Assembly (NCBI RefSeq): GCF_003018255.1
Contig: NZ_CP027440.1
Length of the DNA stretch: 64,000 nucleotides
Reading direction: 5' to 3' (one strand)
Source: Escherichia coli
Lineage (GTDB): Bacteria; Pseudomonadota; Gammaproteobacteria; Enterobacterales; Enterobacteriaceae
A program made the translations under genes and the position numbers. The notes under the pieces were generated by a model. That model was not told where the DNA came from, did not search any database, and worked only from the letters and a program-made list of their open reading frames with translations. The first letter of the stretch is position 1. Each line of letters starts with the position of its first letter. Below, piece by piece: positions 4,028-39,156 of the stretch.

Positions 4028-5287
4028 TCAAACATCCATGCCCAGTGCGCGCTTACCGTGAATGTTCAGATCCTCCAGCGTAAAGCGGCCTTCCCAGTTT
4101 GCTTCATAATCTTCCCGCGGGAAGTCGCCAGGTGATGCGCCTTTTTCCAGCGCCATTTTGACTTTGTGTGCATAAGCCCGATTTTTCTCGCACATTGGCG
4201 CAGCAGGGATATACATCACGTTGCCCCAACCCTGTTGATTGTCTACTGGCGCGACGGAGTGAATCACATCGCAGTGCCACCAGACGGAATCCCCTGCTGT
4301 TATCGCGGGAATGGAAGTCAGCGCTTTAAGCAGTAGTGGATGCCATTTCTCTGAAATGGGCAGAACTTTGCCAGGTGCAACCCCGCACAGTTCATCGTCC
4401 GGTACGTCATCCAGCAGCGGGCGCAATAAAACATACGCCATCGCTTCCGGGATAGGCACCACATGTAACAATCCCTGACCCGATAACATATCAGAGAGCG
4501 CCGTCCAGCCCTGAAACGTGCGGAACACCGAACATTTTGTAGTGTTATCTACCGTGTACTCTTCGACATCGGTCCGGTGTGCAGCATCCCAGGGATCGTA
4601 ATCATCGAAATTACCATTAAACACATTGGCAAAAACGCGCTGATAAGCGGGTAATAACCACCGTTCCAGCGCACCAGAATCGGTATGCGCGCCCAGGCCT
4701 TTAGATGTAGTACCTGGAGGGCGGCGGCGGATCCTGTCTGGATAAATCACACTGATATCAGGATTAAACCACTGTTTGCCGTTGCTTTCAGACTTCCACA
4801 GTCGGTTTAGAAAAGATTGCACAGCAGCCATGTTTTCGCTCTGCCGCGCCTGCATCTGTGCTTGCGACCAGTAAATGGGATAGATTTCGGGACGAGAAGC
4901 CTCCAGCGAGCCGAAAAAACTGTCGCCAGGGCCTTTATAAACATCATCAAAATGATTGATATCAAGATAATCGAGCATGGCACGATCCCACGCCATCGCC
5001 TGCTCGCGAGGGAAATGGCCTTTTATGACTGCACAACCGCGACGTTTAATTTCATTGCGAGTGGCATCGCTTACTGTACCTGCGGCAATATCACTATAAG
5101 AAACTTCCGGCCAAACCGGCAGCCCTTGCGCTTTTAGGGCATCGATTTCAGCAACACGCGTTTCGATTTTTGCAGAGAGTGTATCGAAAACCTGTTGCAC
5201 ATCACTGAGCTGTTCCCGCAGCGCAGCTTTCATCTCTCGGATAGCTGCTTTCGCATCTGTGGGCAGCGTCTCACAGGAAAAAGTCAT
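4028..5287 (-). CDS. ybiU: Conserved protein of unknown function (DUF1479 family)
   Basis: 419-aa ORF whose size and position match K-12 YbiU; no recognisable catalytic motif by eye. Confidence 0.8.
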   Translation of the reverse strand: MTFSCETLPTDAKAAIREMKAALREQLSDVQQVFDTLSAKIETRVAEIDALKAQGLPVWPEVSYSDIAAGTVSDATRNEIKRRGCAVIKGHFPREQAMAWDRAMLDYLDINHFDDVYKGPGDSFFGSLEASRPEIYPIYWSQAQMQARQSENMAAVQSFLNRLWKSESNGKQWFNPDISVIYPDRIRRRPPGTTSKGLGAHTDSGALERWLLPAYQRVFANVFNGNFDDYDPWDAAHRTDVEEYTVDNTTKCSVFRTFQGWTALSDMLSGQGLLHVVPIPEAMAYVLLRPLLDDVPDDELCGVAPGKVLPISEKWHPLLLKALTSIPAITAGDSVWWHCDVIHSVAPVDNQQGWGNVMYIPAAPMCEKNRAYAHKVKMALEKGASPGDFPREDYEANWEGRFTLEDLNIHGKRALGMDV

Positions 5288-5392
5288 ATCAACCTCGCTT
5301 CTTTCATTCGAAAGTAAAATGATTGCGATTGATACATTAAGTTAAAAATAAGTTAACGCAAGATAAAAATATTGAGTCAGTGCACAAAGCGA

Positions 5393-5428
5393 GCAAAAAG
5401 GAGAGAGGCCGAAGTGGTCACTTCGGCC
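5393..5428 (-). terminator. Rho-independent terminator downstream of ybiV
   Basis: Stem GGCCGAAGTG / CACTTCGGCC followed on the minus strand by a T-rich tract. Confidence 0.6.
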
Positions 5429-5438
5429 AGGGGGAAGA

Positions 5439-6254
5439 TCAACTATTGAAAGGAGCGATATTATCCAGCACCGCCTGAATCACATTCAGCGCGCCTTCAT
5501 GATTATTATCATCGGTAGCGTAACGGGCGATTTGTTTAATGTTTTCCGCAGCATTGCCCATCGCAAAGGAATAACGCGCCATTTTCAGCATCTCCGCATC
5601 GTTACCGCTGTCGCCAATCGCTACCACATTTTGCGGTGACAGATCCCAGCGTTTCAGTAACCGCGAAATACCGTTTGCTTTATGTAGACCGGGAATAATC
5701 AAGTCGATAAAGCCAAAACCACTGGTGACGGGTTTCATAATGCCATCCAGCGCTATGTGCAGTTTGTCGATCACTAACGGGATTTGTTCATCCGGCAGGT
5801 TGAGCGAAAACTTGAACAGTACGTCGTCAATCTCCTGATAATCTTTTACAGGTTTCAGGCGATGGTAGTGTTTTGCCATCAGTGCGACGAATGCTTCGGG
5901 GGCATTTTCGCTGACATATGCACTTTGCAGACCGCAGGCGACAAAATTGAGTTGCTTATCTTTTAGCAACTCGCCAATAACAATCCGCGATTCATGTCGG
6001 GTCAGTTCGCCGTGGAACAACTGCTTGCCATGTTCGTAAACCAGTGCGCCGTTTTCCGCGACAAAAGAGATCTCATCCTTTAGCTCAGGAAAGAACGAAA
6101 TAAGCTGGTAATACTGATTACCGCTGGCGACAACGAACTCAATGCCGCGCTTTTTCAGTTCCTGATATTGCGCCATAAAACGTGGTTGGTTGTACGTTTT
6201 GGCGTCGTTAAGAAAAGTACCGTCCATGTCTGTGACGATAACTTTTACGCTCAT
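5439..6254 (-). CDS. ybiV: HAD-superfamily (Cof-type) sugar phosphatase
   Basis: 271-aa ORF; N-terminal DMDGTF motif (HAD motif I) and GDSGND (motif IV); paralog of ybjI in this window. Confidence 0.9.
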
Positions 6255-6399
6255 AGGTGTGCTCCTGGCTCGAAAATGAAACCGTAACAGTGTAATAACA
6301 ATGTGACGCAGAGCACAAATTATATTTCGAATGAAAGCGAGGCTGAAATTGATGATGTGAATGATTTGGCCCGGCGACGACGACGCCGGGCTGAGGGGA

Positions 6400-8832
6400 T
6401 TACAGCATGTGTTCGGTACGGGCGATGATATCGTCCTGTGCGTCTGGAGAGAGCGCGGTGAAGAAGGCGGAATAACCCGCTACGCGTACCACCAGATCGC
6501 GGTATTGATCCGGATGTTTCTTCGCCTCCAGCAATGTTTCGCGGGAAACAATGTTGTACTGAATATGCCAGCCTTTATGCACTTCAAAGAAGGTACGCAG
6601 CAGGATCATCAGTTTCTGCTTGTCAGATTCATTCTCCAGCGTTGCCGGATTCAGTTTCTGGTTGAGCAGCACGCCGCCGAGAATTGCTGCCGTAGGCAGT
6701 TTACCCACCGAGCCAATGACCGCAGTAGGGCCGAGATGGTCAGTACCGGAGGCCGGACTAGCGCCTTCTGCCAGCGGGGTATGTGCTTTACGTCCGTCCG
6801 GCGTTGCCATCGTCTGCGCGCCAAACGGTACGTTAGCGGAGATAGACGATGTGCCCGCATAATAGTTGCCGCCAATCGGACCACGACCGTAGCGCGGGTT
6901 ATGGTACTGCTTCAGTTCGTCGATATAGGTCTGATAAGCGCGAGCCAGCAGCGTATCGACAGTATCATCGTCGTTGCCGTACTTCGGCGCACCGTTAATC
7001 AGCCGCTGACGCAGCTGCTCGTGAGTCAGGCCGTCGAAGTCATCCGCCAGTGCGGCAGCCAGCTGTTGCTGACCAATCGCGCCCTGTTCAAATACCAGTT
7101 TCTTCACTGCCGCCAGGCTGTTGCCGAGGTTAGCAATGCCGACCTGCAGGCCAGAAACCCAGTCATATTTCGCGCCGCCTTGCTTGATACTTTTCGCTCG
7201 CTCAATACAGTCATCGACCAGCGCCGAGCAGAGAATATCGTGTACGTTCTCTTCCAGCATGGTATCGACGACATATTCGATTTCGATTGATTTACGCGTG
7301 TAGTAACGGATTTGCGTATCCCATGCGTCCATTACTTCATCGAAGTTGTTGAAGTTACCCGCTGACAACGCTTTTGCTTGTGGCAGGAACACTTTGCCGC
7401 TGGTGGCATCACGACCACCTTCCAGCGCCGCCAGCATCACGCGGGCGAAGTTGATAAAGCTCATGCCGGTACAGCGATAGCCCCATTTGCCACCGACGGC
7501 GGTTTCGATACAACCAATTGCTGCGTAGTCGTAAGCGTCCTGCGGTTCAATACCGAGTTTAATAAATTCCGGGATCACGATTTCGTCGTTGTTGAACGCC
7601 GGCATCCCGAAGCCGCAGCGGATCACCTGAACACAGGCGTCGAGGAAATCGTTACTCATACCCGCATGGTAACGCACGCTGAGGTTAGGCTGAGTCGAAC
7701 GCAGGCGACCGCAAGATTCGAGGATCGCATAAGAGAGTGGATTTACCGCGTCCATCGGTTGACCATCAACCAGATTTTGCCCGCCAATGGTGACGTTCTG
7801 ATACAGCGGACTTCCCGCAGAGGCTTTTGAGTGTGAGCCGGAGCGGATTTTGTTCACTTCCAGCAGTTTCAGCCAGCAGCTATGCAGCATCTCGATGGCG
7901 TGTTCGCGATCCAGTGTCTGGTTCAGTTCAACGTCACGGCGATAGTATGGGTAGAGATACTGGTCCATACGACCAAACGATACCGAGTGACCGTTAGATT
8001 CGATCTGCAAAATCAACTGGATGAAGTAGCACAGTTGCAGCGCCTGCCAGAAAGTCTGCGGCGGCTGGTGGGCGATAAGATCGCAGTTTTCTGCTATCGT
8101 CAGCAGTTCATCGCGACGGCTTTCGCGGGTTTCGGTTGCGGCCATTTCACGCGCCAGGGCAGCGAAACGTTCAATGTGTTCACTGACTGCCACCAGCACG
8201 ATATCAATCGCTTTCAGGAATTGCTCGCCGTGCAGATCTTCCAGAACCGTCAGATTGATGCGCGAGCGACGTTCCGCCACTTTCTCACGCAGACCATCAA
8301 GACCTTTTTCCAGCAGTAGCGGGAAATTGACCGCCAGGTGCGCATCGCCGGAGGTCATATTGCCCTCCGCTTTAATGATGCCGGTCGCCAGCAGACCTTT
8401 TTGCTCATCGGTAAACATGCCGTAGCAGCGATCCTGTACGGTCTGACCGCGCCACCACGGGCACACTTCATGCAGAACGCGTTTGTTCTCTTCGCTCACC
8501 GCAAAACCAGCACCGGGACGATCTGCCAGATCATCAATCTCTTTTTCGATCCAGGAGACGGTATATTCCGGGAAGATCGGCGCGGCGCGAACTTCGCTTG
8601 CCTGGTTGCCAATGATCAATTCATCATGTTTGATCCAGATGGTGCGATTCGCCAGGTGATGCGCCAGTGCCAGCGCGCGACGTACCGGGATTGGCTTATC
8701 GAGATGTTGTTGATACATCTCGGTATAGTGTTGTGCTCGTTCGGTACAGACCGGCGGTTTCACAATATGCACCAGCGCATTTTTGTGCGCTTTAATGCGG
8801 TCGCTGAGCGTATCCAGTTTTAGTGTTGTCAT
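6400..8832 (-). CDS. ybiW: Glycyl-radical enzyme, pyruvate formate-lyase-like
   Basis: 810-aa ORF with the C-terminal glycyl-radical motif RVAGYSA; an activase gene lies immediately downstream. Confidence 0.9.
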
Positions 8833-8837
8833 GATTG

Positions 8838-9737
8838 TTATCCTCGTAAGGTCGCGGTTAACCCTTTCTGGCAGGCATACTGCTGGGCAAAGTCGAGCAG
8901 TTCTGGCGCATCAAGCGGTTTTTCCGGGGCGTCATAGGGCAGATTAAGTAAGTGATATTTGTTGATGCCCAGCGTGTGGTAGGGCAGGAAATGAATTTCA
9001 CCAACGTGCAGCTCGTCGGCGGCAAAATCGGTAATGGCTTTCACAGAGGTTTCGTCGGCATTAAAGCCCTGAATCAGCGGCACGCGGATAATGATTTTTT
9101 TGCCCGCTGCGGCGAGTTTTTTCAGGTTATCCAGCACTCTGGCGGCGTTACCGTCGGTCCACTGTTTAAATGGCGCGTCGGCAACGTGTTTTAAATCGGC
9201 AAGAAACAGATCGATATAGGGCAGAGAAGGGGCGATATATTTCCACGGCACATGCAGACAGGTTTCTACCGCAGTATGAATGCCGGCCTCGTGGCTGGCT
9301 TGCAGCAGCGCCGTCGCCATTTCCGGCTGCATAAACGGTTCACCGCCAGAAAGCGTTAAGCCGCCGCCGCTGCGCTCGTAAAACGGTTTATCGCGCAAAA
9401 CGGTTGCCATGATCTCCTCAACGCTTTTCACTTCACCACATACGGTTAACGCCTGTGTCGGGCAGCAGTCGGTTAACGCCGTAAAATGCTCCGGGGTTAA
9501 CTTTTCCCGATGGATAAGCAAACCATTCAGCGCGCGCTCAATCACTTCCGGCGCGGCCTTAGCGCACAGCTCGCAGCCTTCCAGACACAGTCGTGCGTCA
9601 TACAGCAGATCCTGCGTGCGGGCGCGGCTTTCCGGGTTCTGACACCAGCGGCAGCCCAGCGAACAGCCTTTAAGAAATACGACCGTGCGGATACCGGGGC
9701 CATCATGGGTCGAGTAGCGCTGAATATTGAAAATCAT
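8838..9737 (-). CDS. ybiY: Glycyl-radical enzyme activating enzyme (radical SAM)
   Basis: CxxxCxxC radical-SAM motif ([11 protein letters not shown]) plus additional Cys clusters; the ORF track start is at 9764, the more likely ATG at 9737. Confidence 0.85.
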
Positions 9738-9867
9738 AGTTGCCTCTCTGTTTCGTTCAAACATTAAAATACTTTCGAATGAAAGTTAGATTGATGTGCG
9801 TCAACTGTTCAGAGAGTTTTCCCGTGATAGTCTACATTCAGACAAAAAGTACATTTTGAGGATGGTT

Positions 9868-10530
9868 ATGGAACTGTATCTGGATACTTCAGACGTTGTT
9901 GCGGTGAAGGCGCTGTCACGTATTTTTCCGCTGGCGGGTGTAACCACTAACCCAAGCATTATCGCCGCGGGTAAAAAACCGCTGGAGGTTGTGCTTCCGC
10001 AACTTCACGAGGCGATGGGCGGTCAGGGGCGTCTGTTTGCCCAGGTAATGGCTACCACTGCTGAAGGGATGGTGAATGACGCACGTAAATTGCGTTCTAT
10101 TATTGCGGATATCGTGGTGAAAGTTCCGGTGACCGCTGAGGGGCTGGCAGCAATTAAGATGTTAAAAGCGGAAGGGATTCCGACGCTGGGAACCGCGGTA
10201 TATGGCGCAGCACAAGGGCTACTGTCGGCGCTGGCAGGTGCGGAATATGTTGCGCCTTACGTTAATCGTATTGATGCTCAGGGCGGTAGCGGCATTCAGA
10301 CTGTGACCGACTTACACCAGTTATTGAAAATGCATGCGCCGCAGGCAAAAGTGTTAGCCGCAAGTTTCAAAACCCCGCGTCAGGCGCTGGACTGCTTACT
10401 GGCAGGATGTGAATCAATTACTCTGCCACTGGATGTGGCACAACAGATGATTAGCTATCCGGCGGTTGATGCCGCTGTGGCGAAGTTTGAGCAGGACTGG
10501 CAGGGAGCGTTTGGCAGAACGTCGATTTAA
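9868..10530 (+). CDS. fsaA: Fructose-6-phosphate aldolase 1 (transaldolase-like)
   Basis: In-frame ATG giving [17 protein letters not shown] (220 aa); the ORF track start at 9796 is an upstream in-frame extension. Confidence 0.9.
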
Positions 10531-10561
10531 CCGGACGTTCTGCATCCTCATAAATTGCTGA

Positions 10562-10606
10562 TGACGTGGCGGAGTGCACCGATGCCTGCCACGTCTTATC
10601 AGGCCT
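10562..10606. repeat. REP-like hairpin between convergent fsaA and moeB
   Basis: Inverted repeat GACGTGGC...GCCACGTC followed by CTTATCAGGCC, resembling REP. Confidence 0.5.
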
Positions 10607-10617
10607 GGAGGTGGCAA

Positions 10618-11367
10618 TTACTGCCCGCACACCTCACACCCCGGATTGCGCATCAGTTTCATTTCGCGAAACTGACAGGTCATCGCATCGTACATCACGA
10701 TTTTCCCGCTGGCTGGTTTGCCATAACCTGCCAGCAGTTTGATCGCTTCCATTGCCTGCAACGAACCAATTACGCCGATCAACGGTGCCATCACGCCTGC
10801 TTCTACGCAGGTTAACGCGTTCTCGCCAAACAAACGGCTAAGGCAGCGATAGCACGGTTCGCCGTCCTGATAAGTGAAGACCGTGATTTGCCCTTCCATA
10901 CGAATTGCCGCGCCGGAAACCAGCGGCACCTTCGCGGCAAAACAGCCTGCGTTCAGTTGATTACGTACTGCAACGTTATCCGTACAGTCGAGCACCAGAT
11001 CGTGTTTTGCAATCATCGCAGCAAGTTCAGCGTCATCAAGCAGCGCATTGACTGGCGTAATCGCGATATGTGGGTTGATCCGCGTCAGGGCGTCACGGGC
11101 GGATTCCACCTTTGGTTGCCCGACCGTGGCATCACTGTGCAGCGTCTGGCGTTGCAGATTGGAGAGCGAAACCGTGTCGAAGTCGAGCAGCGTCAGGTTG
11201 CCGACACCGGCGCTTGCCAGATACTGCGAAGCTGCGCAGCCGAGTCCACCAAGGCCGACGACCAGCACGCGGGAATCTTTCAATGCTTCCTGACCGTCAA
11301 AATCAAAACCGCGCAGAATGATTTGCCGGTTGTAGCGCAGCATCTCCTGATCGCTGAGTTCTGCCAT
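10618..11367 (-). CDS. moeB: Molybdopterin-synthase adenylyltransferase
   Basis: 249-aa ORF; ThiF/MoeB Rossmann motif GLGGLGC; C-terminal CxxC pairs; start overlaps the moeA stop. Confidence 0.9.
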   Translation of the reverse strand: MAELSDQEMLRYNRQIILRGFDFDGQEALKDSRVLVVGLGGLGCAASQYLASAGVGNLTLLDFDTVSLSNLQRQTLHSDATVGQPKVESARDALTRINPHIAITPVNALLDDAELAAMIAKHDLVLDCTDNVAVRNQLNAGCFAAKVPLVSGAAIRMEGQITVFTYQDGEPCYRCLSRLFGENALTCVEAGVMAPLIGVIGSLQAMEAIKLLAGYGKPASGKIVMYDAMTCQFREMKLMRNPGCEVCGQ

Positions 11368-12602
11368 TACAGGCCTCCGAACAACGCGTTAAATGGTTCT
11401 ACTTCCACCCATTCGCCCGCTTCTACATTGCCGCGCTCGCGTTCCAGTACGATAAAGCAGTTGCCGAGGCTAAAAGAGCTAAATATATGTGAGCCCTGAT
11501 GCCCGGTGGTGGTGACTTCCAGTTCACCGTCAGCATTACGTTGCAGCACGCCGCGCTGGAAATCAAGGCGTCCTGGCGATTTCTTCAGAGGCGATGTCGT
11601 GCGTACGCGCTGACGCGCGGGCAGGCCGCTGGCGGTGTTGCCGCTCAATTTTGCCAGTAACGGCTGTACCAGTTGATAGAAGGTCAGCGTTGCTGAAACC
11701 GGATTACCCGGCAGGCCGCAGAACCAGCTATTGCTGAGTTTACCGAACGCGAACGGTTTACCCGGTTTAATCGCCAGCTTCCAGAAGGCGATTTCACCCA
11801 GCTCTTCGAGAATGGTTTTGGTGTAATCCGCTTCACCCACTGAAACACCGCCGGAACTGATCACTACATCCGCCTGGCTGTCGGCTTCAATAAATGCGGC
11901 GCGCAGGGCATGGGGATCGTCGCGGATAATCCCTAAGTTGATTACCTCGCAACCCAGCTGTTCTAACATCAGGTGTACGGCGAGACGGTTGGTATCGTAG
12001 ATTTGGCCATCGCCCAGTGGCTGACCAGGCAACTGGAGTTCATCACCGGTAGAAAACAGCGCTACACGCACTTTACGAATCACCGGAACTTCGGCAATCC
12101 CCAGTGAAGCAATCACTGGCAGTTCAGCGGTAGTCAGGCGAGTTCCCGCCGGGAAAACAACCGCACCTGCAGAGATATCTTCACCGCGACGGCGAATATT
12201 TTGCCCGCTACGCACTTCAGCAGTAAAACGCACGCCATTGTCCGTTTGTTCAGTCTGCTCCTGCATCACCACCCCTTCGCAGCCTTCTGGCACCGGCGCA
12301 CCGGTCATAATACGAATGCAGGTACCCGCAGGCCATTCACCATGGTACGGCTGACCGGCAAAGGATTTACCGGCAACGGGCAGCGGTTGCCCGGAGGCAA
12401 TATCGGCTAAACGCACCGCGTAGCCGTCCATAGCGGAGTTATCAAACCCCGGGACATCCAGTGGCGAAACGACATCGCTCGCCAGAATACGACCAAAACA
12501 CTGAACCAGTGGCAGCGTTTCCTGGGCGGTCAGTGGGGTAACGCGAGAAAGCATCTCATTAAGCGCGGTGTCGAGCGACATCAATCCGGTGGTAAATTCC
12601 AT
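11367..12602 (-). CDS. moeA: Molybdopterin molybdenumtransferase
   Basis: 411-aa ORF matching MoeA; translationally coupled to moeB (ATGA overlap). Confidence 0.9.
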
Positions 12603-12805
12603 GAAAACACTCCTGCGGAGGCAAAATCGAATTTGCCTATTATGTCAGAAAAACGCCACAGACTGTATGCCACCTCGGGCGTAGTGCTGGCTCCTGCCTT
12701 TACATGCCATATCCATCTTTCTATATTCAAAAATTGAATGAGTAATTCATAAAAATTCTGATATTTATAGCAAAAGTGGCGAGCCACCCTTAATGGACGA
12801 ATACT

Positions 12806-13771
12806 ATGGGCAAAGCTGTCATTGCAATTCATGGCGGCGCAGGTGCAATTAGCCGCGCGCAGATGAGTCTGCAACAGGAATTACGCTACATCGAGGCGCT
12901 GTCTGCCATTGTTGAAACCGGGCAGAAAATGCTGGAAGCGGGCGAAAGTGCGCTGGATGTGGTGACGGAAGCGGTGCGTCTGCTGGAAGAGTGTCCACTG
13001 TTTAACGCCGGAATTGGCGCTGTCTTTACGCGTGATGAAACCCATGAACTGGACGCCTGTGTGATGGATGGTAACACCCTGAAAGCCGGTGCGGTGGCGG
13101 GCGTTAGTCATCTGCGTAATCCGGTTCTTGCCGCCCGGCTGGTGATGGAGCAAAGCCCGCATGTGATGATGATTGGCGAAGGGGCAGAAAATTTTGCGTT
13201 TGCTCATGGCATGGAGCGCGTCTCGCCGGAGATTTTCTCCACGCCTTTGCGTTATGAACAACTACTGGCAGCGCGCGAGGAAGGGGCAATGGTTCTCGAC
13301 CATAGCGGTGCGCCACTGGATGAAAAACAGAAAATGGGCACCGTGGGGGCCGTGGCGTTGGATTTAGACGGCAATCTGGCGGCAGCCACGTCCACGGGCG
13401 GAATGACCAATAAATTACCCGGACGAGTTGGCGATAGTCCCTTAGTGGGGGCCGGATGCTACGCCAATAACGCCAGTGTGGCGGTTTCATGTACCGGCAC
13501 GGGCGAAGTCTTCATCCGCGCGCTGGCGGCATATGACATCGCCGCGTTAATGGATTACGGCGGATTAAGTCTCGCGGAAGCCTGCGAGCGGGTAGTAATG
13601 GAAAAACTCCCTGCGCTTGGCGGTAGCGGTGGCTTAATCGCTATCGACCATGAAGGTAACGTCGCGCTACCGTTTAACACCGAAGGAATGTATCGCGCCT
13701 GGGGCTACGCAGGCGATACGCCAACCACCGGTATCTACCGTGAAAAAGGGGACACCGTTGCCACACAGTGA
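12806..13771 (+). CDS. iaaA: Isoaspartyl dipeptidase / L-asparaginase (Ntn hydrolase)
   Basis: 321-aa ORF with the autoproteolytic GTVGAV threonine site; overlaps the gsiA start. Confidence 0.9.
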
Positions 13772-29982: not shown

Positions 29983-30579
29983 TCAGTCACGCACCCAGCC
30001 TTTGCGGATCGGTAATGCAAAACAGAAGCGATACCACGATTGCAGACGTTGATAGAGTTTATGCCCCATCGCTTGCCAGATAATCTGGGCGCTAAGGCAG
30101 CCAATCATACCTGCCAGCAATCCACCGAGCATATCCAGCGGCCAGTGGACGCCAAGATAAACGCGCGACCAGGCAATGACGACGGCCAGCACCATTAAAA
30201 GTGAGCCGGACCACAGGCGATGCCAGCATAAAAATGCCAGTGCAAAGGTGAAAATCACCGTACCGTGATCGCTCGGGAATGAGTCATCCGCCGCATGATG
30301 CAGGAAGTTATAGCCGATATTTTCGACAAAGGGTCGGTCGTGCGGAAAAAGATGCCCCATCGACCAGGACACAAACAGGCTGACCGCCAGCGCGATAGCG
30401 ATTTTTATCACCAGTTGCCGTTGTGCTGTAAGCCCCCACAGCCAAAGTACCGCGGCCAGCAACGGCACCACGGTAATCAAATCTTTTGCAATAAAAATCG
30501 CCAACGAGATCATCCACGGCGCAGAGTCTGGCGTCGCGTTAATAAGAGAGAATAGAGAGAGATTCAAATTTTCCAGCAT
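29983..30579 (-). CDS. ybjG: Undecaprenyl-pyrophosphate phosphatase (PAP2 family)
   Basis: About 198-aa multi-TM ORF with PAP2 motifs (SFPSDHG). Confidence 0.85.
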   Translation of the reverse strand: MLENLNLSLFSLINATPDSAPWMISLAIFIAKDLITVVPLLAAVLWLWGLTAQRQLVIKIAIALAVSLFVSWSMGHLFPHDRPFVENIGYNFLHHAADDSFPSDHGTVIFTFALAFLCWHRLWSGSLLMVLAVVIAWSRVYLGVHWPLDMLGGLLAGMIGCLSAQIIWQAMGHKLYQRLQSWYRFCFALPIRKGWVRD

Positions 30580-30863
30580 AACTTCCCGACGCAAAGTGAT
30601 TAAAAGGGAGCCAATACAGGCAAGTCGTTGAGAATAAAGTGCAGGTTAAACTGGGTAAAGCGGCATCGTCTTATTTCCCTCAAGCGGCCTGTTTACGGTG
30701 GGTGATTGTAACGGGCAAAGGTTAAATAAAACTTAAAGAAAGCGTAGCTATACTCGCAATAATGTAAGAATGTGCTTAACCGTGGTTTCAGCTACAAAAT
30801 TCGCTTTCTCGTTAGCTGCGCTTTTATTAAACTTTGCGCGATTATTATTGGCGAAGAAATTGC

Positions 30864-32096
30864 ATGCAAAATAAATTAGCTTCCGGTGCCAGGCTTGGAC
30901 GTCAGGCGTTACTTTTCCCTCTCTGTCTGGTGCTTTACGAATTTTCAACCTATATCGGCAACGATATGATTCAACCCGGTATGTTGGCCGTGGTGGAACA
31001 ATATCAGGCGGGCATTGATTGGGTTCCTACTTCGATGACTGCGTATCTGGCGGGCGGGATGTTTTTACAATGGCTCCTGGGGCCGTTGTCGGATCGTATT
31101 GGCCGCCGTCCGGTGATGCTGGCGGGAGTGGTGTGGTTTATCGTCACCTGTCTGGCAATATTACTGGCGCAAAACATTGAACAATTCACCCTGTTGCGCT
31201 TCTTGCAGGGCATAAGCCTCTGTTTCATTGGCGCTGTGGGATACGCCGCAATTCAGGAATCCTTCGAAGAGGCGGTTTGTATCAAGATCACCGCGCTAAT
31301 GGCGAACGTGGCGCTGATTGCTCCACTACTTGGTCCGCTGGTGGGCGCGGCGTGGATCCATGTGCTGCCCTGGGAAGGGATGTTTGTCTTGTTTGCCGCA
31401 TTGGCAGCGATCTCCTTTTTCGGTCTGCAACGAGCCATGCCTGAAACCGCCACGCGTATAGGCGAGAAACTGTCGCTGAAAGAACTCGGTCGTGACTATA
31501 AGCTGGTGCTGAAGAACGGCCGCTTTGTGGCGGGGGCGCTGGCGCTGGGATTCGTTAGCCTGCCGTTGTTGGCGTGGATCGCCCAGTCGCCGATTATCAT
31601 TATTACCGGTGAGCAGTTGAGCAGCTATGAATATGGCTTGCTGCAAGTGCCTATTTTCGGGGCGTTAATTGCGGGTAACTTGCTGTTAGCGCGTCTGACC
31701 TCGCGCCGCACCGTACGTTCGCTGATTATTATGGGCGGCTGGCCGATTATGATTGGTCTGTTGGTCGCTGCTGCGGCAACGGTTATCTCATCGCACGCGT
31801 ATTTATGGATGACCGCCGGGTTAAGTATTTATGCTTTCGGTATTGGTCTGGCGAATGCGGGACTGGTGCGATTAACCCTGTTTGCCAGCGATATGAGTAA
31901 AGGTACGGTTTCTGCGGCGATGGGGATGCTGCAAATGCTGATCTTTACCGTCGGTATTGAAATCAGCAAACATGTCTGGCTGAACGGGGGCAACGGACTG
32001 TTTAATCTCTTCAACCTTGTCAACGGAATTTTGTGGCTGTTGCTGATGGTTATCTTTTTAAAAGATAAACAGATGGGAAATTCGCACGAAGGGTAA
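30864..32096 (+). CDS. mdfA: MFS multidrug efflux transporter
   Basis: ATG giving [27 protein letters not shown] (410 aa); 12-TM MFS. Confidence 0.9.
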
Positions 32097-32133
32097 AAAA
32101 ATGCCTGATTGCTTTGTGCGATCAGGCATTCTC
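32097..32133. terminator. Bidirectional intrinsic terminator between convergent mdfA and ybjH
   Basis: A-run, then stem AATGCCTGAT / ATCAGGCATT; strong U-tract on the minus-strand reading. Confidence 0.7.
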
Positions 32134-32136
32134 GAA

Positions 32137-32421
32137 TTAATGGTGATGGTCGTCAATCTGGTGTTCGATAACCATCCCTTCACCTACGCTGGCAAGATGG
32201 CGAACATAAGGATGCGGGCGGTAAGCCGGAGCTGGCGCAGGAGCCACATAGACGGTTTGCGGCACAGTCGCGACGCTGACCGCTTGTGGAACGCTGACTG
32301 AATCAGGAACCACAACCACTTTGTATCCACTCGGCACATCGACGGTGACACTTTGCGCCATCGCCACACCAGTAAAGCCCATTAAAAGCGCGCCCAACAG
32401 TAGACAATTTTTCATAATCAT
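32137..32421 (-). CDS. ybjH: Small secreted protein of unknown function
   Basis: 94-aa ORF with signal peptide MIMKNCLLLGALLMGFTGVAMA. Confidence 0.75.
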   Translation of the reverse strand: MIMKNCLLLGALLMGFTGVAMAQSVTVDVPSGYKVVVVPDSVSVPQAVSVATVPQTVYVAPAPAPAYRPHPYVRHLASVGEGMVIEHQIDDHHH

Positions 32422-32505
32422 TTCGCCTGAAATAATGCAGCGGGTTAATTTCCGCGAATTATGCAGCCTTCATTCAGGTATTGTGTTGCCGGGCGTGCTG
32501 CCGTT

Positions 32506-33321
32506 TTATTGGTTAAATGGCGCTTCGTGTTTAAGCACTTTATCGATCACATCCAGTACGCCTTCACGGTTATTGGAGCCTGCCCGGTATTTTGCCGCTG
32601 CGACGACCGCGCTGCCGGCATTTTCCATTGCAAAACTAAAGCCTGCCTGACGCAGCATCTCAATATCGTTACCGCCATCGCCAAAGACCACCACTTCGCT
32701 GTCGTCTATTCCCCATAATTTCTGCAGTTGGCGAAGGCCATTGGCTTTATGTACGCCGGGGATAATCAGATCGATGCTGCCGTTGCCGGTGTGGACCGGC
32801 ACCATAATATCGCCGATGGCCTCATGTAATGCTTTTTGTACTTGTGGAATCAGTTCATCGGAAAGATTCAGACCAAACTTAAAGAAGATATCTTCTAAGT
32901 TGTCAAAGTTATCGACGTATTCCAGACGGTGATAATACATTTCCGCCACCGTTTTCATGGCATCGTCATATTTTTTGAGTGTATAGGCGCTATTTTTTCC
33001 GCAGGCAATAATTTCCACTTCCGGGCGCGTCAGCAAATGTTCCACGACAGTAGAAAACGCATCCTTCGACAGCTCGCCATTAAAAACATCTTTGCCTTCG
33101 CTCACTACCCAGCCGCCGTTTTCAGCCACAAAGGCTATTTCATTAGCAATTTCCGGAAAGAAAGAGATCAACTGATAATATTGATTCCCGCTGGCGACCA
33201 CAAAGCGAATGCCTTGTGCTTTCATTTGCTGATACTGAGCCATAAACCGCTCACGGTTATAGGTTTTTTGATCGCTTAAGAAAGTACCATCCATGTCTAC
33301 CGCAATTAATTTAATGCTCAT
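32506..33321 (-). CDS. ybjI: HAD-superfamily (Cof-type) phosphatase
   Basis: DMDGTF and GDGGND HAD motifs; close paralog of ybiV; overlaps the ybjJ stop. Confidence 0.9.
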   Translation of the reverse strand: MSIKLIAVDMDGTFLSDQKTYNRERFMAQYQQMKAQGIRFVVASGNQYYQLISFFPEIANEIAFVAENGGWVVSEGKDVFNGELSKDAFSTVVEHLLTRPEVEIIACGKNSAYTLKKYDDAMKTVAEMYYHRLEYVDNFDNLEDIFFKFGLNLSDELIPQVQKALHEAIGDIMVPVHTGNGSIDLIIPGVHKANGLRQLQKLWGIDDSEVVVFGDGGNDIEMLRQAGFSFAMENAGSAVVAAAKYRAGSNNREGVLDVIDKVLKHEAPFNQ

Positions 33322-34529
33322 CAACTATTCTCCATCGCCGTCTGCGTTTTGGTATCGGGTTTGGCGACGGCTTTCGCGACAATAGCCGCGAGAATAACCA
33401 GCGCCAGTACAACCAGCATTGCACTACGTAATCCATAATGTTCGCCGAGATAGCCCAGCAGTGGCGGCCCGACGAGGAAAGCCAGATAACCGGTCGTAGC
33501 TACCACGCTGACGCGGGTTGGTGCATCGGGGCCGGTATCGCTGGCGGCAGAAATGGTCAGCGGGAAGCCCAACGAGGCACCCAGTCCCCAAAGTACAACA
33601 GACACCCCAGCAACCCAGGCGCTATCGACAAAAATAATCAGCCCAATACCCAACGCCCCCATTAGTGCACTGGCCCGAACCACGGCAACGCGACTGTAAC
33701 GGTCAATGAACCAACCGCCGGTAAAGCGTCCAACGGTCATCCCCAGGGTAAAACCGGCATAAATCAGCGAGCCGGAAGTAGGGCTAAAACCGTGACCGTC
33801 AACCATTAATAAGGGTAACCAGTCGTTGGCAGAACCTTCGGCAAAGGCCATCGCCAGCACCACAACACCAATCAGCAGCAACTGGATATCGCGATAAAAA
33901 GGTACGCCTTTTTCACCATGCTGGGTGCCATCGGCAGCATTTTTGCCCGTACCATCAGGGATTGCCTGAATGGCGATATAAATAGGCGCGATGCCTACCA
34001 GCGCCGCCAATAAAATGTGCACCGTTGCCGGAACGCCAAAGGCCGTTAGTGCCATCCCGACACCAGCGCCTGCCAGCGTGCCCAGGCTATAAAAACCGTG
34101 CATCATCGGCAAAACCGTCTTATTCATTTCTCGCTCAACGGCAGCACCTTCAACGTTTATCGCCACTTCCGCAGAACCAAAACTTGCCCCAAAGACGCCG
34201 AGACCAACCGCGAAGAGCAGGGGCGATGTCAGCCAGAGTGCCAGACTTAGTATCATCATCCCGATCAATGCGCAGGACATCGTGACCAGGATGACATTAC
34301 GCGTCCCAAAGCGTTTCACTAACCACGCCGAGCAGAGAATACCGCTCATTGAACCGATCGACAGACCAAAGAGGACTCCGCCCATTTCAGCGATCGAAAC
34401 AGAAAGAATATCGCGGATAGCAGGCGTACGGGTTGCCCAGGACGCCATTAACAGGCCTGGCAAAAAGAAGAACATAAACAGCGCCCAGGTTCGGCGTTTC
34501 AATGCATTACGTGAAGAATTTACGGTCAT
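33321..34529 (-). CDS. ybjJ: MFS-type inner membrane transporter
   Basis: 402-aa multi-TM ORF. Confidence 0.85.
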
Positions 34530-34612
34530 AGATCACGTCAAAATAAGAAGAGGGAAGACAACATTAGCAAGGTTGTGTACATTTGTACACAATTGCAGAG
34601 AGAGGAAATGAC

Positions 34613-35149
34613 ATGCGTCGCGCTAACGATCCGCAACGGCGAGAAAAAATTATCCAGGCCACGCTGGAGGCGGTGAAACTTTATGGAATACATGCTGTTA
34701 CGCACCGCAAAATTGCTACCCTTGCCGGGGTACCGTTGGGGTCGATGACCTACTATTTTTCAGGAATTGATGAGTTGTTGCTGGAGGCGTTCAGCAGTTT
34801 TACTGAGATCATGTCCCGGCAATATCAGGCATTTTTTAGCGATGTTAGTGATGCTCCGGGCGCATGCCAGGCTATCACCGATATGATTTACAGCTCACAG
34901 GTTGCAACGCCGGATAACATGGAGCTGATGTACCAGCTCTACGCGCTGGCTAGCCGAAAACCGCTATTAAAAACGGTAATGCAAAACTGGATGCAGCGCA
35001 GTCAGCAAACGCTCGAACAATGGTTTGAACCCGGAACCGCCCGCGCGCTTGATGCGTTTATTGAGGGGATGACGCTGCATTTTGTCACCGACCGTAAGCC
35101 GCTATCGCGCGAGGAGATTTTGAGGATGGTTGAGAGGGTTGCAGGGTAG
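34613..35149 (+). CDS. rcdA: TetR-family transcriptional regulator
   Basis: ATG giving [21 protein letters not shown] (178 aa); N-terminal TetR HTH. Confidence 0.85.
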
Positions 35150-35168
35150 TAGATAAATTTTAGACAAC

Positions 35169-35247
35169 AAAAAACCCACCAACCTTGAACCGAAATGGCG
35201 GGGTTGATGGGCTCCACAAAATGGGGACATCAAAGAAAAGCAGTGGC
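35169..35247 (-). ncRNA. rybB: RybB small RNA (sigma-E-dependent, Hfq-binding)
   Basis: Minus-strand read GCCACTGCTTTTCTTTGATGTCCCCATTTTGTGGAGCCCATCAACCCCGCCATTTCGGTTCAAGGTTGGTGGGTTTTTT matches RybB, including the terminator hairpin and U-tail. Confidence 0.9.
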
Positions 35248-35290
35248 ACTAATTAAGACTGATGCCCTGCGGAAAAGTTCTGCGGTTGTG
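35248..35290 (-). promoter_or_regulatory. Sigma-E-type promoter of rybB
   Basis: Minus-strand GAACTT (-35-like) and TCTTA (-10-like) upstream of the RybB 5' end. Confidence 0.55.
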
Positions 35291-35323
35291 CAAAAAAATT
35301 TCATTTTCAGGGCAACTTCAGTT

Positions 35324-37009
35324 TTATCCTAATCCTGGCCATACCATGACGATGATTGTCCCTGCCAGCGTCAGCAGGACGTTGGCGATTGCGTAAGTGC
35401 CCGCATAGCCCAGTGCCGGGATATTACTGCGAGCTGTATCACTGATGATCTCCATTGCCGGCGCGCAGGTGCGTGCGCCCATCATTGCGCCGAACAACAG
35501 TGCGCGGTTCATTCGCAATACATAAGCACCGAACAAGAAGCAGATAACCACTGGCACCAGACTGACAATCAATCCGGCAATCAACATCTGACCGCCAATC
35601 GCGCCCAGGCCGTTATTAATACCGCTACCAGCGCTCAGACCAACGCCTGCCATAAACACCATCAAGCCGAACTCCTTCACCATGCTTAATGCACCCTGCG
35701 GAATGTAACCGAAGGTCGGGTGGTTAGCACGCATAAAGCCCAGCATAATTCCGGCGAATAACAACCCGGCAGCGTTCCCCATACCGAAACTGAATGTGCT
35801 GAACTGGAAGGTGATCATCCCGATCATCAGCCCAATAACAAAGAAGGCGCAGAATGCCAGCAAGTCAGTGACCTGGCTGTGAATCGAGATAAAGCCGATG
35901 CGATCGGCGATGGTTTTTACCCGGCGGGCATCGCCGCTGACTTGTAAAACGTCACCTTTGTTAAGCACGACGTTGTCATCAATCGGCATCTCAATCTGGC
36001 TACGTATGACGCGGTTAAGGAAGCAACCGTGATCGGTCAACTTCAGTTGTGCCAGGCGTTTGCCAACAGCGTTATGGTTTTTAACGACCACTTCTTCAGT
36101 GACGATACGCATGTCGAGAAGGTCACGATCGAAAACTTCTTTGCCATTACGGAAACTGGGATCGAGTCGGGCGTGGGCGTCAGGATAGCCTACCAACGCT
36201 ATTTCATCGCCCATTTGTAGTACGGCATCACCGTCTGGATTTGCCAGAATCCCGTTACGCCGAATACGTTCAATGTAACAGCCAGTTTGTCGATAAATAC
36301 CCAGTTCACGCAGATTTTTGCCGTCGGTCCAGGCTACCAGCTCCGGGCCGACGCGGTAGGCGCGGATCACCGGCAAATAAACCTTACGGTTGGCATCTGT
36401 GTCCAGGCCACGTTCGCGGGCGATTTGCTGGGCGCTGGTCTGTAAGTCCTGATGCTGCAATTTCGGCAAGTAACGCGCACCAACAATCAAACTCACCAGG
36501 CCGATTAAATAGGTTAAGGCATACCCGAGGCTCAGATTATCCAGTGCCAATGAGAGCTGCCTGCTTTCCATGCCGGAATGACGCAGTGTATCGCCAGCAC
36601 CGACCAGAACCGGTGTTGACGTCATAGAGCCTGCTAACATACCGGCCGTCAGGCCAATATCCCAGCCAAACAGCTTACCTAACCCTAAGGCGATGACCAG
36701 CGCACTGCCAACCATCACCAGTGCTAACATTAGGTAATTTTTCCCATCGCGAAAAAAAATGGAAAAAAAGTTCGGTCCGGCTTCGACCCCGACGCAGAAA
36801 ATAAACAGCATAAAGCCAAGATTAAGCGCGTCGGTGTTAATGCTGAAATGTTGTTGGCCTAATAACAGCGATACGACTAAAACGCCAATGGAATTACCCA
36901 GTTGGATCGAACCAAGTCGTAATTTCCCGAGACATAGCCCAAGCGCGAGGACCACAAATAATAACAGAATGTAATTCCCATTTAACAATTCGGCGACGTT
37001 TATATTCAC
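35324..37009 (-). CDS. ybjL: Putative AAE-family transporter with TrkA-C domains
   Basis: 561-aa ORF with two hydrophobic domains flanking a soluble central region. Confidence 0.85.
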
Positions 37010-37278
37010 GGAGGCTAACTTCTTGTTTACTAGTAAGCTGTTGAAAGAAATGGTAATTTACGATAATGTTTTTTACCAGAATTCAGGGCGCAGATTCATT
37101 CAGCGCACCTAAACGATAGTAAAGTAACAATATATTTTACTAGTGTAATCACATTAGGTATCAACGGCTATATGAATTGCGTTGGCCTATATTAGCATGG
37201 AATGCGAAGCGGCTTTATCTTACTGAACGCCACACTGGCGAAAAATGTGTTCGATAGACGCAGTGTCAGGAGGAACGA

Positions 37279-37656
37279 GTGAAACATAAACAACGTTGGG
37301 CGGGGGCAATCTGCTGTTTTGTCCTCTTCATTGTGGTGTGTCTTTTTCTGGCGACACACATGAAAGGCGCTTTTCGGGCTGCCGGGCATCCTGAAATCGG
37401 TTTGCTATTTTTCATTCTTCCTGGTGCAGTTGCCAGCTTCTTTTCACATCGTAGAGAAGTCCTGAAACCTCTGTTTGGCGCAATGCTGGCGGCACCCTGT
37501 TCGATGCTCATTATGCGGCTGTTTTTTTCACCGACGCGCTCATTCTGGCAAGAGCTGGCATGGTTATTAAGTGCGGTGTTCTGGTGTGCGCTGGGGGCAT
37601 TGTGTTTCTTATTTATCAGTAGTTTGTTTAAACCACAGCACAGAAAAAATCAATAA
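37279..37656 (+). CDS. ybjM: Inner membrane protein
   Basis: 125-aa hydrophobic ORF. Confidence 0.8.
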   Translation: MKHKQRWAGAICCFVLFIVVCLFLATHMKGAFRAAGHPEIGLLFFILPGAVASFFSHRREVLKPLFGAMLAAPCSMLIMRLFFSPTRSFWQELAWLLSAVFWCALGALCFLFISSLFKPQHRKNQ

Positions 37657-37668
37657 AGCCCTCAACGC
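37647..37668. terminator. Hairpin between convergent ybjM and grxA
   Basis: Stem AGCCCTC / GAGGGCT with 5-nt loop; T-rich tract on the minus-strand reading. Confidence 0.6.
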
Positions 37669-37685
37669 GAGGGCTTGTCAGACGA

Positions 37686-37943
37686 TCAGGCGTCCAGATT
37701 CTCTTTCACCCATGCAGCAAAATCGGTATAGCCGCCGATATGTTGCTGATCGACAAAAATCTGCGGCACGGTTTCTACGGGTTTTCCTGCCTTTTGTTGT
37801 AGATCTTCTTTAGTGATCCCTTCCGCACGAATATCTACATACTGATACTGGAAATCATCGCGTTCATTGCTCAATTTCTCAGCCAGATCTTTTGCACGCA
37901 CACAGTAAGGGCAACCCGGACGACCAAAAATAACGGTTTGCAT
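37686..37943 (-). CDS. grxA: Glutaredoxin 1
   Basis: About 85-aa ORF with CPYC active site (MQTVIFGRPGCPYC). Confidence 0.9.
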   Translation of the reverse strand: MQTVIFGRPGCPYCVRAKDLAEKLSNERDDFQYQYVDIRAEGITKEDLQQKAGKPVETVPQIFVDQQHIGGYTDFAAWVKENLDA

Positions 37944-38102
37944 TATTTCTCTCCTCATAGATTTATACCTGTAATGATCACGCTAAAATGTATTCGCTGA
38001 AAGTAGGTTTAACCTGTTGCATTAATTGCTAAAAGCTATAACTGTTAAACACAATACAGTGAAAAGTTTTAGACTGAAGGCTCACTTTGCAGAGGGAAGC
38101 GT

Positions 38103-39096: not shown

Positions 39097-39156
39097 AACC
39101 GCCACGCCGATGTATGATACGCGGGCTTTTGACCAGGTCTGACAGAGAGGTGCAGG

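Follow-up and report, generated by a model that had tools for sequence, protein, structure and literature searches.

The window, a 64,000-nucleotide stretch of Escherichia coli DNA, carries on its minus strand the gene for an 810-aa glycyl-radical enzyme (GRE), ybiW (6400-8832), and that for a 299-aa radical-SAM activase, ybiY (8838-9737), with a stop-to-start gap of 5 nt between them. The longest ybiY open reading frame runs from 8838 to 9764 on the minus strand; the start matching that of K-12 is the ATG at 9737, which has a Shine-Dalgarno sequence (GAGAGG) and coincides with the end coordinate in the original prediction. Divergent from this pair lies the aldolase gene fsaA (9868-10530, plus strand; NF009296, 454 bits), and on the other side, both on the minus strand, are ybiV (5439-6254), encoding a Cof-type HAD sugar phosphatase and a member of the YciT regulon, and ybiU (4028-5287), encoding a Gig2-like/DUF1479 protein. 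A terminator-like hairpin 3' of ybiV (5407-5428, minus strand; a 9-bp stem, then a T-rich tail) would split ybiV and ybiU into separate transcription units. Over positions 30000-42000 the window matches E. coli strain JNE23-011 at 100.0% identity, and the locus was found in 5425 of 5426 complete genomes. The neighbours ybiU, ybiV, fsaA and moeB are common to K-12 and the window, the ybiY-fsaA spacer is 99% identical, and the differences are allelic only; ybiU and the ybiU-ybiV spacer of the window represent a divergent allele, despite which the three operator cores described below are intact.

The GRE and its activase form a complete system, as originally predicted. The C-terminal RVAGYSA of YbiW aligns with RVSGYAV of PflB, so that the glycyl-radical loop RVxG[FWY] is present, and C441 of the Cys loop (AIGC441-I-E443), the thiyl-radical cysteine, is invariant in an alignment with PflD and PflB. 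YbiY has the C25-X3-C29-X2-C32 motif together with two auxiliary Cys clusters, and scores 369.5 bits with TIGR02494, whose cutoff of 174 it thus passes. The same alignment reveals the C-x-E eliminase signature as G-C441-I-E443 in YbiW and G-C-V-E in PflD. A single Cys + Glu catalytic loop is a class feature of GRE 1,2-eliminases, and YbiW has it in common with glycerol and propanediol dehydratases, CutC and HypD. Orthologues aside, these eliminases, among them the B12-independent glycerol dehydratase of Clostridium butyricum (1r8w), are the nearest structural relatives, with E-values of 5e-164 and below, and full-length matches were obtained to PDB 8id7 and 8yjn, both titled 'Probable dehydratase YbiW'. 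YbiW reached the cutoff of none of the equivalog models for glycerol/propanediol dehydratase, CutC and HypD. PflD (PflD/PflC, PDB 8yjo) is 39% identical to YbiW, with RVAGYSA and the G-C-x-E loop in both, and an aldolase paralogue gene, fsaB, is found near pflD as fsaA is beside ybiYW; unlike ybiW, however, pflD belongs to a PTS (frw) cluster that also holds ptsA, fsaB and gldA. The 14 kb around pflD contain no YciT motif at two mismatches or fewer, and pflD is therefore regulated differently from ybiW.

The window protein is 99% identical to K-12 YbiW, equal in length and in conserved synteny; on these grounds we regard it as the orthologue of the K-12 1,5-anhydroglucitol-6-phosphate dehydratase, the activity itself being taken from the literature. 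In PMC12441222, Ma et al. 2024 (doi 10.1021/jacs.4c07718) are credited with assigning 1,5-anhydroglucitol 6-phosphate (1,5-AG-6-phosphate) to YbiW and 1,5-anhydromannitol 6-phosphate to PflD. The statement in the original prediction that the substrate was not firmly established is thus out of date. The YbiW substrate is a phosphorylated cyclic polyol, unlike those of glycerol dehydratase and the other GRE 1,2-eliminases.

Copies of a palindrome do flank the ybiYW pair, as had been noticed, but there are three rather than two, the one missed lying 5' of ybiU. The 13-nt core TTTCGAATGAAAG is identical at 5301-5313 (5' of ybiU), 6325-6337 (5' of ybiV) and 9773-9785 (between ybiY and fsaA), all intergenic, against a chance expectation of ~0.002 for a given 13-mer in 64 kb. 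An exact copy of the 16-mer ACTTTCGAATGAAAGT stands at 9771-9786; the copy at 6323-6338 (TATTTCGAATGAAAGC) departs from it by three mismatches, and that at 5300-5315 on the minus strand by one. The palindrome is imperfect, with an asymmetric GAAT between the 6-bp arms ACTTTC and GAAAGT. We refer to the three sites as putative YciT operators A, B and C. Operator A (5297-5317; minus strand TTACTTTCGAATGAAAGAAGC) is located 13-28 nt 5' of the ybiU ATG, which corresponds to ~+12 to +27 relative to a predicted promoter that is itself conserved. Operator B (6321-6341; TATATTTCGAATGAAAGCGAG), in the ybiW-ybiV spacer, adjoins a perfect TATAAT (6319-6324, minus strand), and a CRP-like box 5' of ybiV (6302-6317; TGTGACGCAGAGCACA) is kept across genera. 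Operator C (9769-9789; ATACTTTCGAATGAAAGTTAG) is common to the divergent ybiYW and fsaA promoters, its centre being at ~-23 from the predicted ybiY start. When the window was scanned with a weight matrix derived from the sites in orthologous loci, the three sites scored 30.3, 24.8 and 32.0 and everything else below 8.

The dedicated regulation at which these palindromes were thought to hint is real and its repressor is already published: YciT binds the ybi locus and represses ybiY, ybiW, ybiV, ybiU and fsaA (PMC8464067; bioRxiv 10.1101/2025.05.13.653802). ChIP-exo peaks were assigned to ybiV and ybiY, and deletion of yciT changed expression by log2 factors of +7.7 for ybiY, +7.0 for ybiU, +3.5 for ybiW, +2.2 for ybiV and +1.8 for fsaA (PMC8464067); in Reg-Seq, YciT was enriched on the ybiY promoter by DNA-affinity mass spectrometry, and this promoter was active under anaerobic conditions (bioRxiv 10.1101/2025.05.13.653802). 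We converted the ChIP-exo coordinates from NC_000913.2 to.3 (+777, +1976 to +1980; validated by the seven other peaks) and scored the best match per 2-kb K-12 region with a matrix from 105 unique orthologous sites. In seven of eight other regions (yfcV, sixA, rdcA, yjiT, yjjI, yhgE, pdeR) this match fell inside the 30-bp YciT peak, whereas the 2-kb region of the ompX peak had no match scoring at least 4. Sites with two mismatches or fewer are absent from the pflD/frw/fsaB/gldA locus and from pflB. K-12 YciT and its Serratia homologue both have an N-terminal PF08220 (HTH_DeoR) and a C-terminal PF00455 (DeoRC) domain; our search found no solved YciT structure. With this architecture and several operators over one catabolic locus, YciT resembles DeoR, GlpR, UlaR and AgaR, but unlike them it is encoded away from its main targets in E. 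coli. Concerning autoregulation in K-12, there is no good site beside yciT; the sole motif-like site in 10 kb, in the pdeR-rnb spacer, sits under a YciT ChIP peak. Considering the motif match computed here together with the published binding, the palindrome is most likely the operator of this DeoR-family repressor.

Neighbourhoods were also compared across species, a check that had been proposed. Of 80 orthologous loci, 73 have the motif in the corresponding positions, and the core with at most one mismatch occurs 180 times in these 80 loci (1.58 Mb; ~1.9 expected), 178 times in the three syntenic spacers and twice in equivalent positions. In 11 loci, yciT homologues (58-78% identity; HTH_DeoR + DeoRC) are found directly 3' of ybiW or beside fsaA or ybiU. 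In Serratia, Buttiauxella and Franconibacter yciT directly follows ybiW, in the order (rnb-pdeR in some)-yciZ-[fsaA, ybiY, ybiW]-yciT-yciH-pyrF-lapB, with cstA replacing pdeR-yciZ in Serratia. Our analysis thus shows that the palindrome is the YciT motif, that its three positions are conserved in synteny, and that other genera have yciT and ybiW physically linked. The yciZ/yciT-yciH-pyrF-lapB surroundings in those genera match the neighbourhood of E. coli yciT, which lies ~480 kb from the ybiYW locus. The E. coli gene looks like a regulator left behind at the ancestral locus, which may be a new point.

A consensus sigma-70 scan returned a sole site, which overlaps the ybiY start codon and is not credible. 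Promoters were instead deduced from cross-genus conservation, and all their positions are predictions. A candidate -10 hexamer for ybiYW, TTTAAT (9763-9768, minus strand), is kept across genera, and would place the ybiY start near 9756 and a predicted FNR-type box (9791-9804; TTGATGTGCGTCAA; centred on 9797.5 and agreeing with the consensus at 9 of 10 positions) at -41.5. On the plus strand, the predicted extended -10 of fsaA, TGaTAGTCT (9825-9833), follows a conserved TGnTAnnnT pattern; the fsaA start would be near 9840 and the box at ~-42.5. The centre of the box is 18.5 bp from that of the operator C core, and 67 of the 73 TTGAY-N4-RTCAA boxes in the 1.58 Mb of orthologous loci keep exactly this spacing, against a chance expectation of 6. 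We thus predict a conserved FNR-type box at ~-41.5 of both divergent promoters, possibly a new point. The arrangement resembles that of class II FNR promoters, including divergent single-site ones, since a box of the TTGAT-N4-ATCAA type is predicted ~-41.5 from -10-like hexamers on both sides; at the ybiY promoter, however, a repressor operator occupies the -35/spacer region. Reg-Seq reported an activator footprint ~15 bp 5' of the YciT site as well as anaerobic activation (bioRxiv 10.1101/2025.05.13.653802), and our literature searches found no report of FNR control of ybiY or ybiW.

The identity of both the enzyme and the operator has competing readings. YbiW could be a pyruvate formate-lyase (PFL) isoenzyme (formate C-acetyltransferase) activated by YbiY as its PFL activase; it is still a 'putative pyruvate formate lyase' in the K-12 RefSeq annotation, older papers count ybiW among the PFLs, and PDB 6xs4 carries the name 'Formate C-acetyltransferase'. 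PflB/PflA do have the fold, the glycyl-radical chemistry and radical-SAM activation in common with YbiW/YbiY. Nevertheless, PflB is only 26% identical to YbiW and differs in the glycyl loop (RVSGYAV against RVAGYSA), and PflA-type activases are devoid of the auxiliary Cys clusters of YbiY. The active-site comparison that had been suggested found no PFL-identical signature: where PflB has C-C-V-S (Cys418-Cys419), the same alignment columns in YbiW read G-C-I-E. Furthermore, YbiW fails the PFL equivalog TIGR01255, scoring 161 bits where 994 are required, and falls short of NF007437 as well (583 against 1109); its PDB comparison favours glycerol dehydratase 1r8w (E 5e-164) over PFL 1h16 (E 2e-43), and the dehydratase activity is reported (PMC12441222). 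The active-site alignment and the curated model cutoffs led us to reject the PFL reading, which is almost certainly wrong. As for the palindrome, it is very unlikely to be bound by a different regulator or to act as an RNA element (hairpin or terminator). The two ChIP-exo peaks at the ybi locus are indeed 160 and 105 bp from perfect operators, an offset of ~100 bp on which the Reg-Seq authors remark too, and operator B has none among the listed peaks. However, ybiY promoter DNA pulled down YciT in the hands of the Reg-Seq authors, which supports binding near the operator (bioRxiv 10.1101/2025.05.13.653802), the motif is exactly under seven of the eight other peaks, and in other genera the module that bears the operators has yciT next to it. 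The 6-bp arms could fold a small hairpin, at -4.9 kcal/mol for site C, yet such hairpins are weak or absent (site B -0.4 kcal/mol, z +1.2), occur in either gene orientation 5' of genes, and have no T-run; no Rfam family was matched in 5000-10600. The RNA reading was rejected on these folds (-4.9, -0.4 and -5.4 kcal/mol), a single copy of which beats its own shuffles.

Based on these data, the locus is very probably the E. coli module for the anaerobic radical breakdown of 1,5-anhydroglucitol (1,5-AG), repressed by YciT at three operators, with the roles of FNR and of an inducer deduced. YbiY would install the glycyl radical on YbiW, at the Gly of RVAGYSA; Cys441 and Glu443 of YbiW would then dehydrate 1,5-AG-6-phosphate to 1-deoxyfructose-6-phosphate, which the divergently encoded FsaA would cleave. 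YciT would repress through the three operators across the ybi locus, with operator C, between the FNR-type box and the ybiYW -10, presumably serving the fsaA promoter too, operator B acting beside the TATAAT 5' of ybiV, and operator A in the ybiU leader. Two signals would be needed, anoxia via FNR at ~-41.5 and an inducing sugar phosphate, for which 1,5-AG-6-phosphate is the likeliest candidate and which would act on the DeoRC sensor domain to release YciT. Others have demonstrated the activity of the enzyme, the binding of YciT and the derepression that follows deletion of yciT. The Reg-Seq authors themselves propose that YciT is an oxygen-responsive switch, repressing aerobically and released by anoxia with neither sugar inducer nor FNR; their ybiY reporter was active anaerobically on glucose with no added 1,5-AG, which fits a model with anoxia alone (bioRxiv 10.1101/2025.05.13.653802). 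We consider this proposal unlikely: the sensor domain of YciT is of the DeoRC type, which responds to sugar phosphates, and the protein lacks a redox domain; a conserved near-consensus FNR box stands at a predicted -41.5, Reg-Seq itself saw an activator footprint 5' of the YciT site, and ybiU and ybiV have operators with no FNR box alongside in the window. Moreover, a multicopy reporter library may titrate a low-abundance repressor.

The finding on ybiYW and its palindrome is therefore real but largely explained already, because both the substrate of the dehydratase (2024) and its repressor YciT are known. The enzyme and the repressor were published in separate literatures, and the 2021 ChIP-exo paper and Reg-Seq both call ybiYW functionally unannotated (PMC8464067; bioRxiv 10.1101/2025.05.13.653802). 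A sugar analogue that comes from the diet and from the host, 1,5-AG is used in the clinic as a marker of glycaemia. Its 6-phosphate is toxic in the neutropenia of G6PC3 deficiency and GSD-Ib (PMC12441222). The YbiW pathway would make gut Enterobacteriaceae able to ferment this compound. Bringing together the enzyme, the repressor, the FNR box and the yciT-ybiW linkage yields a testable model, a gate requiring both anoxia and a sugar phosphate. This combined model singles out ybiU as the remaining gene of the YciT regulon with no assigned function, possibly a new point as well. In published data, ybiU responds to the yciT deletion second only to ybiY (log2 change +7.0) and has by far the highest expression of these genes; it adjoins yciT homologues in Rouxiella and Mangrovibacter, and our literature search found no published function for YbiU/DUF1479. 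One conceivable but quite improbable view is that the YciT regulon is a two-branch system for one sugar, with an FNR-dependent anoxic branch (YbiY/YbiW/FsaA), YbiU as its oxygen-dependent counterpart, and YciT sensing 1,5-AG-6-phosphate; YbiU might, for example, hydroxylate C1 of 1,5-AG-6-phosphate to give glucose-6-phosphate.

The ybiW-ybiY pair lies in a segment with the gene order ybiT-ybiU-ybiV-ybiW-ybiY-fsaA-moeBA, and the surrounding 5.4 kb is present in 5425 of 5426 complete E. coli genomes, with identity of up to 98.4%. The original prediction of a glycyl-radical enzyme (GRE) and its activase was right and correctly located: YbiW (6400-8832, minus strand, 810 aa) contains an 11-residue glycyl-radical motif stretch (RVAGYSA), and YbiY (299 aa) carries C25-X3-C29-X2-C32 and two further cysteine clusters. 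The ybiY start at 9737, preceded by GAGAGG and placed as in the K-12 annotation, coincides with the end coordinate of that prediction; the open reading frame extends to 9764. Directly behind the stop codon of ybiW, at 6370-6392, is a GC-rich hairpin (GCCCGGCG...CGCCGGGC); neither strand has a T-run there.

The YbiW of the window is 99% identical to the K-12 protein, and its match to the PDB entries 8id7 and 8yjn ('Probable dehydratase YbiW') is full-length. Its next structural relatives are the B12-independent glycerol dehydratase 1r8w (E 5e-164), diol dehydratase and PflD (8yjo), whereas the pyruvate formate-lyase (PFL) structure 1h16 is much more distant (E 2e-43). Aligned with PflD and PflB of K-12, YbiW shows AIG-C-I-E at the catalytic loop, where PflD has VG-C-V-E and PflB IA-C-C-V-S; YbiW and PflD share a loop with Cys and Glu (G-C-I-E and G-C-V-E), whereas PflB, the PFL, has Cys-Cys. 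Since YbiW has a single Cys plus Glu instead, its active site is, as judged from this alignment, of the eliminase/dehydratase class and not that of PFL. Comparison with PFL had been named beforehand as the refuting test, and no PFL-identical site was found (C-I-E in YbiW against C-C-V-S in PflB). Curated cutoffs are passed by broad subfamily models only (TIGR01774 for YbiW, TIGR02494 for YbiY), and the PFL equivalog model gives YbiW 161 bits, below its cutoff of 994; on the active-site alignment and these cutoffs, YbiW as a PFL was rejected.

The view that the substrate is unassigned is out of date. According to a review (PMC12441222) covering Ma et al. (JACS 2024, doi 10.1021/jacs.4c07718), a PTS phosphorylates 1,5-anhydroglucitol (1,5-AG) and 1,5-anhydromannitol; YbiW then converts 1,5-AG-6-phosphate, and PflD 1,5-anhydromannitol-6-phosphate, into 1-deoxyfructose-6-phosphate. 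The review adds that this chemistry depends on a glycyl radical and works only under strict anoxia, and that 1,5-AG supports the growth of E. coli as well as other gut bacteria. Proteomics of Shigella dysenteriae in vivo showed a strong increase of YbiW in the piglet gut, which fits an anaerobic environment that may also offer substrate from the host. FsaA or FsaB reportedly splits 1-deoxyfructose-6-phosphate into glyceraldehyde-3-phosphate and hydroxyacetone, the latter being reduced to 1,2-propanediol by GldA.

Two palindrome copies had been proposed to flank the pair; copies do stand beside ybiW and ybiY, but there are three, and the inverted repeat is imperfect. The 16-mer ACTTTCGAATGAAAGT is exact at 9771-9786 (operator C, 9769-9789, ybiY-fsaA), with three mismatches at 6323-6338 (operator B, 6321-6341, ybiV) and one at 5300-5315 on the minus strand (operator A, 5297-5317, ybiU). 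All copies are intergenic and have the 13-nt core TTTCGAATGAAAG in common; the consensus of orthologous sites, TTACTTTCGAATGAAAGTTAT, is a 20-bp inverted repeat (TAACTTTC-GAAT-GAAAGTTA). The ybiU-ybiV spacer differs substantially between K-12 and the window, yet the core is intact in both. An RNA-hairpin reading was rejected by folding and an Rfam search.

Gao et al. (PMC8464067) assigned ChIP-exo peaks of the DeoR-family repressor YciT to ybiV (signal/noise 24) and ybiY (signal/noise 45), and concluded that YciT represses ybiY, ybiU, ybiW, ybiV and fsaA (log2 fold changes of +7.7, +7.0, +3.5, +2.2 and +1.8, respectively, upon yciT deletion). In the Reg-Seq preprint (10.1101/2025.05.13.653802), the ybiYW promoter is active anaerobically, DNA-affinity mass spectrometry shows YciT enriched at a site whose position overlaps the footprint of RNA polymerase, and a footprint of an unnamed activator lies about 15 bp further upstream; the YciT motif sequence is given in neither source. 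From 105 unique orthologous sites we derived a weight matrix and used it to scan the K-12 regions (2 kb; 10 kb for pdeR) at eight other YciT peaks, their coordinates converted from NC_000913.2 to.3. The best match of the region fell inside the 30-bp peak in seven of them (yfcV, sixA, rdcA, yjiT, yjjI, yhgE, pdeR), and the ompX region contained no motif match. As, in addition, the three operators are the only sites scoring at least 8 in the whole 64-kb window, the palindrome is the YciT recognition motif. At the ybi locus itself, the published peaks (6233-6266 and 10651-10678 of the K-12 region L001) miss the perfect operators by 160 and 105 bp, falling on one side of them in the 3' end of ybiV and the 5' end of fsaA, the conversion being correct for seven other peaks; operator B has no entry in the published list. 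A discrepancy of about 100 bp was likewise remarked upon by the Reg-Seq authors (10.1101/2025.05.13.653802). The offset might stem from an artefact of peak calling where sites are very strong, or from DeoR-type complexes of higher order. The yjjI-deoC spacer of K-12 (1153-1173 of region L087) has a YciT peak with a motif match scoring 10.2; YciT may thus have a second radical-enzyme target in the GRE-like gene yjjI.

Among 80 orthologous ybiW loci of Enterobacterales (1.58 Mb), the core with at most one mismatch occurs 180 times, where about 1.9 would be expected. Operator C is found upstream of ybiY in 73 of the 80 loci, operator B in 49 of the 59 having ybiV downstream, and operator A in all 55 having ybiU after ybiV; just two matches fall elsewhere, one being an operator B whose contig is truncated and the other preceding a ybiU that has been relocated. 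A predicted FNR-type box (TTGATGTGCGTCAA, 9791-9804), at a distance of four bases from operator C, agrees with the consensus at 9/10 positions. The 80 loci hold 73 such boxes (TTGAY-N4-RTCAA), 6 being expected, and in 67 cases the distance between the centres of box and operator C is constant at 18.5 bp. With promoter positions inferred from conservation, a predicted ybiY -10 element (TTTAAT, 9763-9768, minus strand) would set transcription start near 9756, the FNR box at -41.5 and operator C at about -23, occupying the space between activator and -10. The same box would stand at about -42.5 of a predicted fsaA promoter (TGnTAnnnT, 9825-9833) and operator C at about -61, which fits the much weaker derepression of fsaA in the yciT deletion. 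The FNR box is the obvious candidate for the site of the Reg-Seq activator. FNR is absent from the text of that preprint (10.1101/2025.05.13.653802), and a literature search found no paper tying FNR to ybiY or ybiW control; this strongly conserved box is apparently unreported.

Directly adjoining operator B is a perfect TATAAT (6319-6324, minus strand); just downstream of the operator is a CRP-like box (TGTGACGCAGAGCACA, 6302-6317) whose TGTGn-N6-TCACa pattern is conserved across genera. Operator A occupies about +12 to +27 relative to a conserved predicted ybiU promoter (TTGCrT-16 nt-TAAwGT; here TTGCGT-16 nt-TAATGT, 5334-5361, minus strand), whose spacer holds two TAACTT repeats that resemble YciT half-sites and may be auxiliary binding sites. 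Downstream of ybiV there is a hairpin with a T-rich tail. The locus thus comprises four transcription units and three operators, not a single 'ybiUVWY operon'. YbiU (4028-5287; Gig2-like/DUF1479; structures 2dbi and 2csg), expressed far above the other YciT-repressed genes here, is the remaining member of the 1,5-AG regulon without an assigned role; its gene adjoins a yciT homologue in Rouxiella (L067) and Mangrovibacter (L076). The window's ybiU allele and ybiU-ybiV spacer (4028-5440) diverge from K-12 (L001 4797-6215), and its YbiU is 93% identical to that of one E. coli genome and 98% to that of Escherichia sp. E1V33. As positions 30000-42000 are 100.0% identical to E. coli strain JNE23-011, this divergence suggests a recombined segment.

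In 11 loci, a yciT homologue (58-78% identity, HTH_DeoR and DeoRC) is directly downstream of ybiW or adjoins fsaA or ybiU. Serratia, Franconibacter pulveris and Buttiauxella have the order yciZ-[fsaA, ybiY, ybiW]-yciT-yciH-pyrF-lapB-lapA-pgpB, with rnb and pdeR before yciZ wherever the contig extends that far, and with rnb-cstA replacing pdeR-yciZ in Serratia; fsaA-ybiY-ybiW lies directly upstream of yciT in L071, L072, L073, L074 and L077 (about 8300-13230 each), as compared with L082. The E. coli yciT neighbourhood consists of the same genes (rnb, pdeR, yciZ, yciH, pyrF, lapB) but lacks the GRE module. The linked arrangement is probably the older one, the structural genes of the Escherichia-Citrobacter-Klebsiella-Enterobacter group having presumably relocated beside moeB, ybiV and ybiU while yciT stayed behind as an orphan, from which its distance of about 480 kb from the ybi locus would follow.

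In the best-supported model, YbiY activates YbiW, which dehydrates 1,5-AG-6-phosphate to a product cleaved by FsaA, these enzyme activities having been reported by others; YciT, a repressor likewise established by others, would act on all units through the three operators that we assign to it. Full expression of ybiYW and fsaA would then need both FNR, under anoxia, and a sugar phosphate that releases YciT through the DeoRC domain, 1,5-AG-6-phosphate being the most plausible one. That anoxia itself releases YciT, as proposed in the Reg-Seq preprint, agrees with a reporter active anaerobically with glucose alone (10.1101/2025.05.13.653802), but is weakened by the DeoRC domain of YciT, by the conserved FNR box and by the activator footprint within the same data (10.1101/2025.05.13.653802).

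The feature is real, but its enzyme and regulator halves are both already explained in the literature: a 2024 publication, accompanied by solved structures, gave the YbiW substrate, and the regulator was described in 2021 and once more by Reg-Seq. What is added here is the explicit operator sequence and three-site layout, their conservation across Enterobacteriaceae, the physical linkage of yciT and ybiW in other genera, and a conserved, predicted FNR box.
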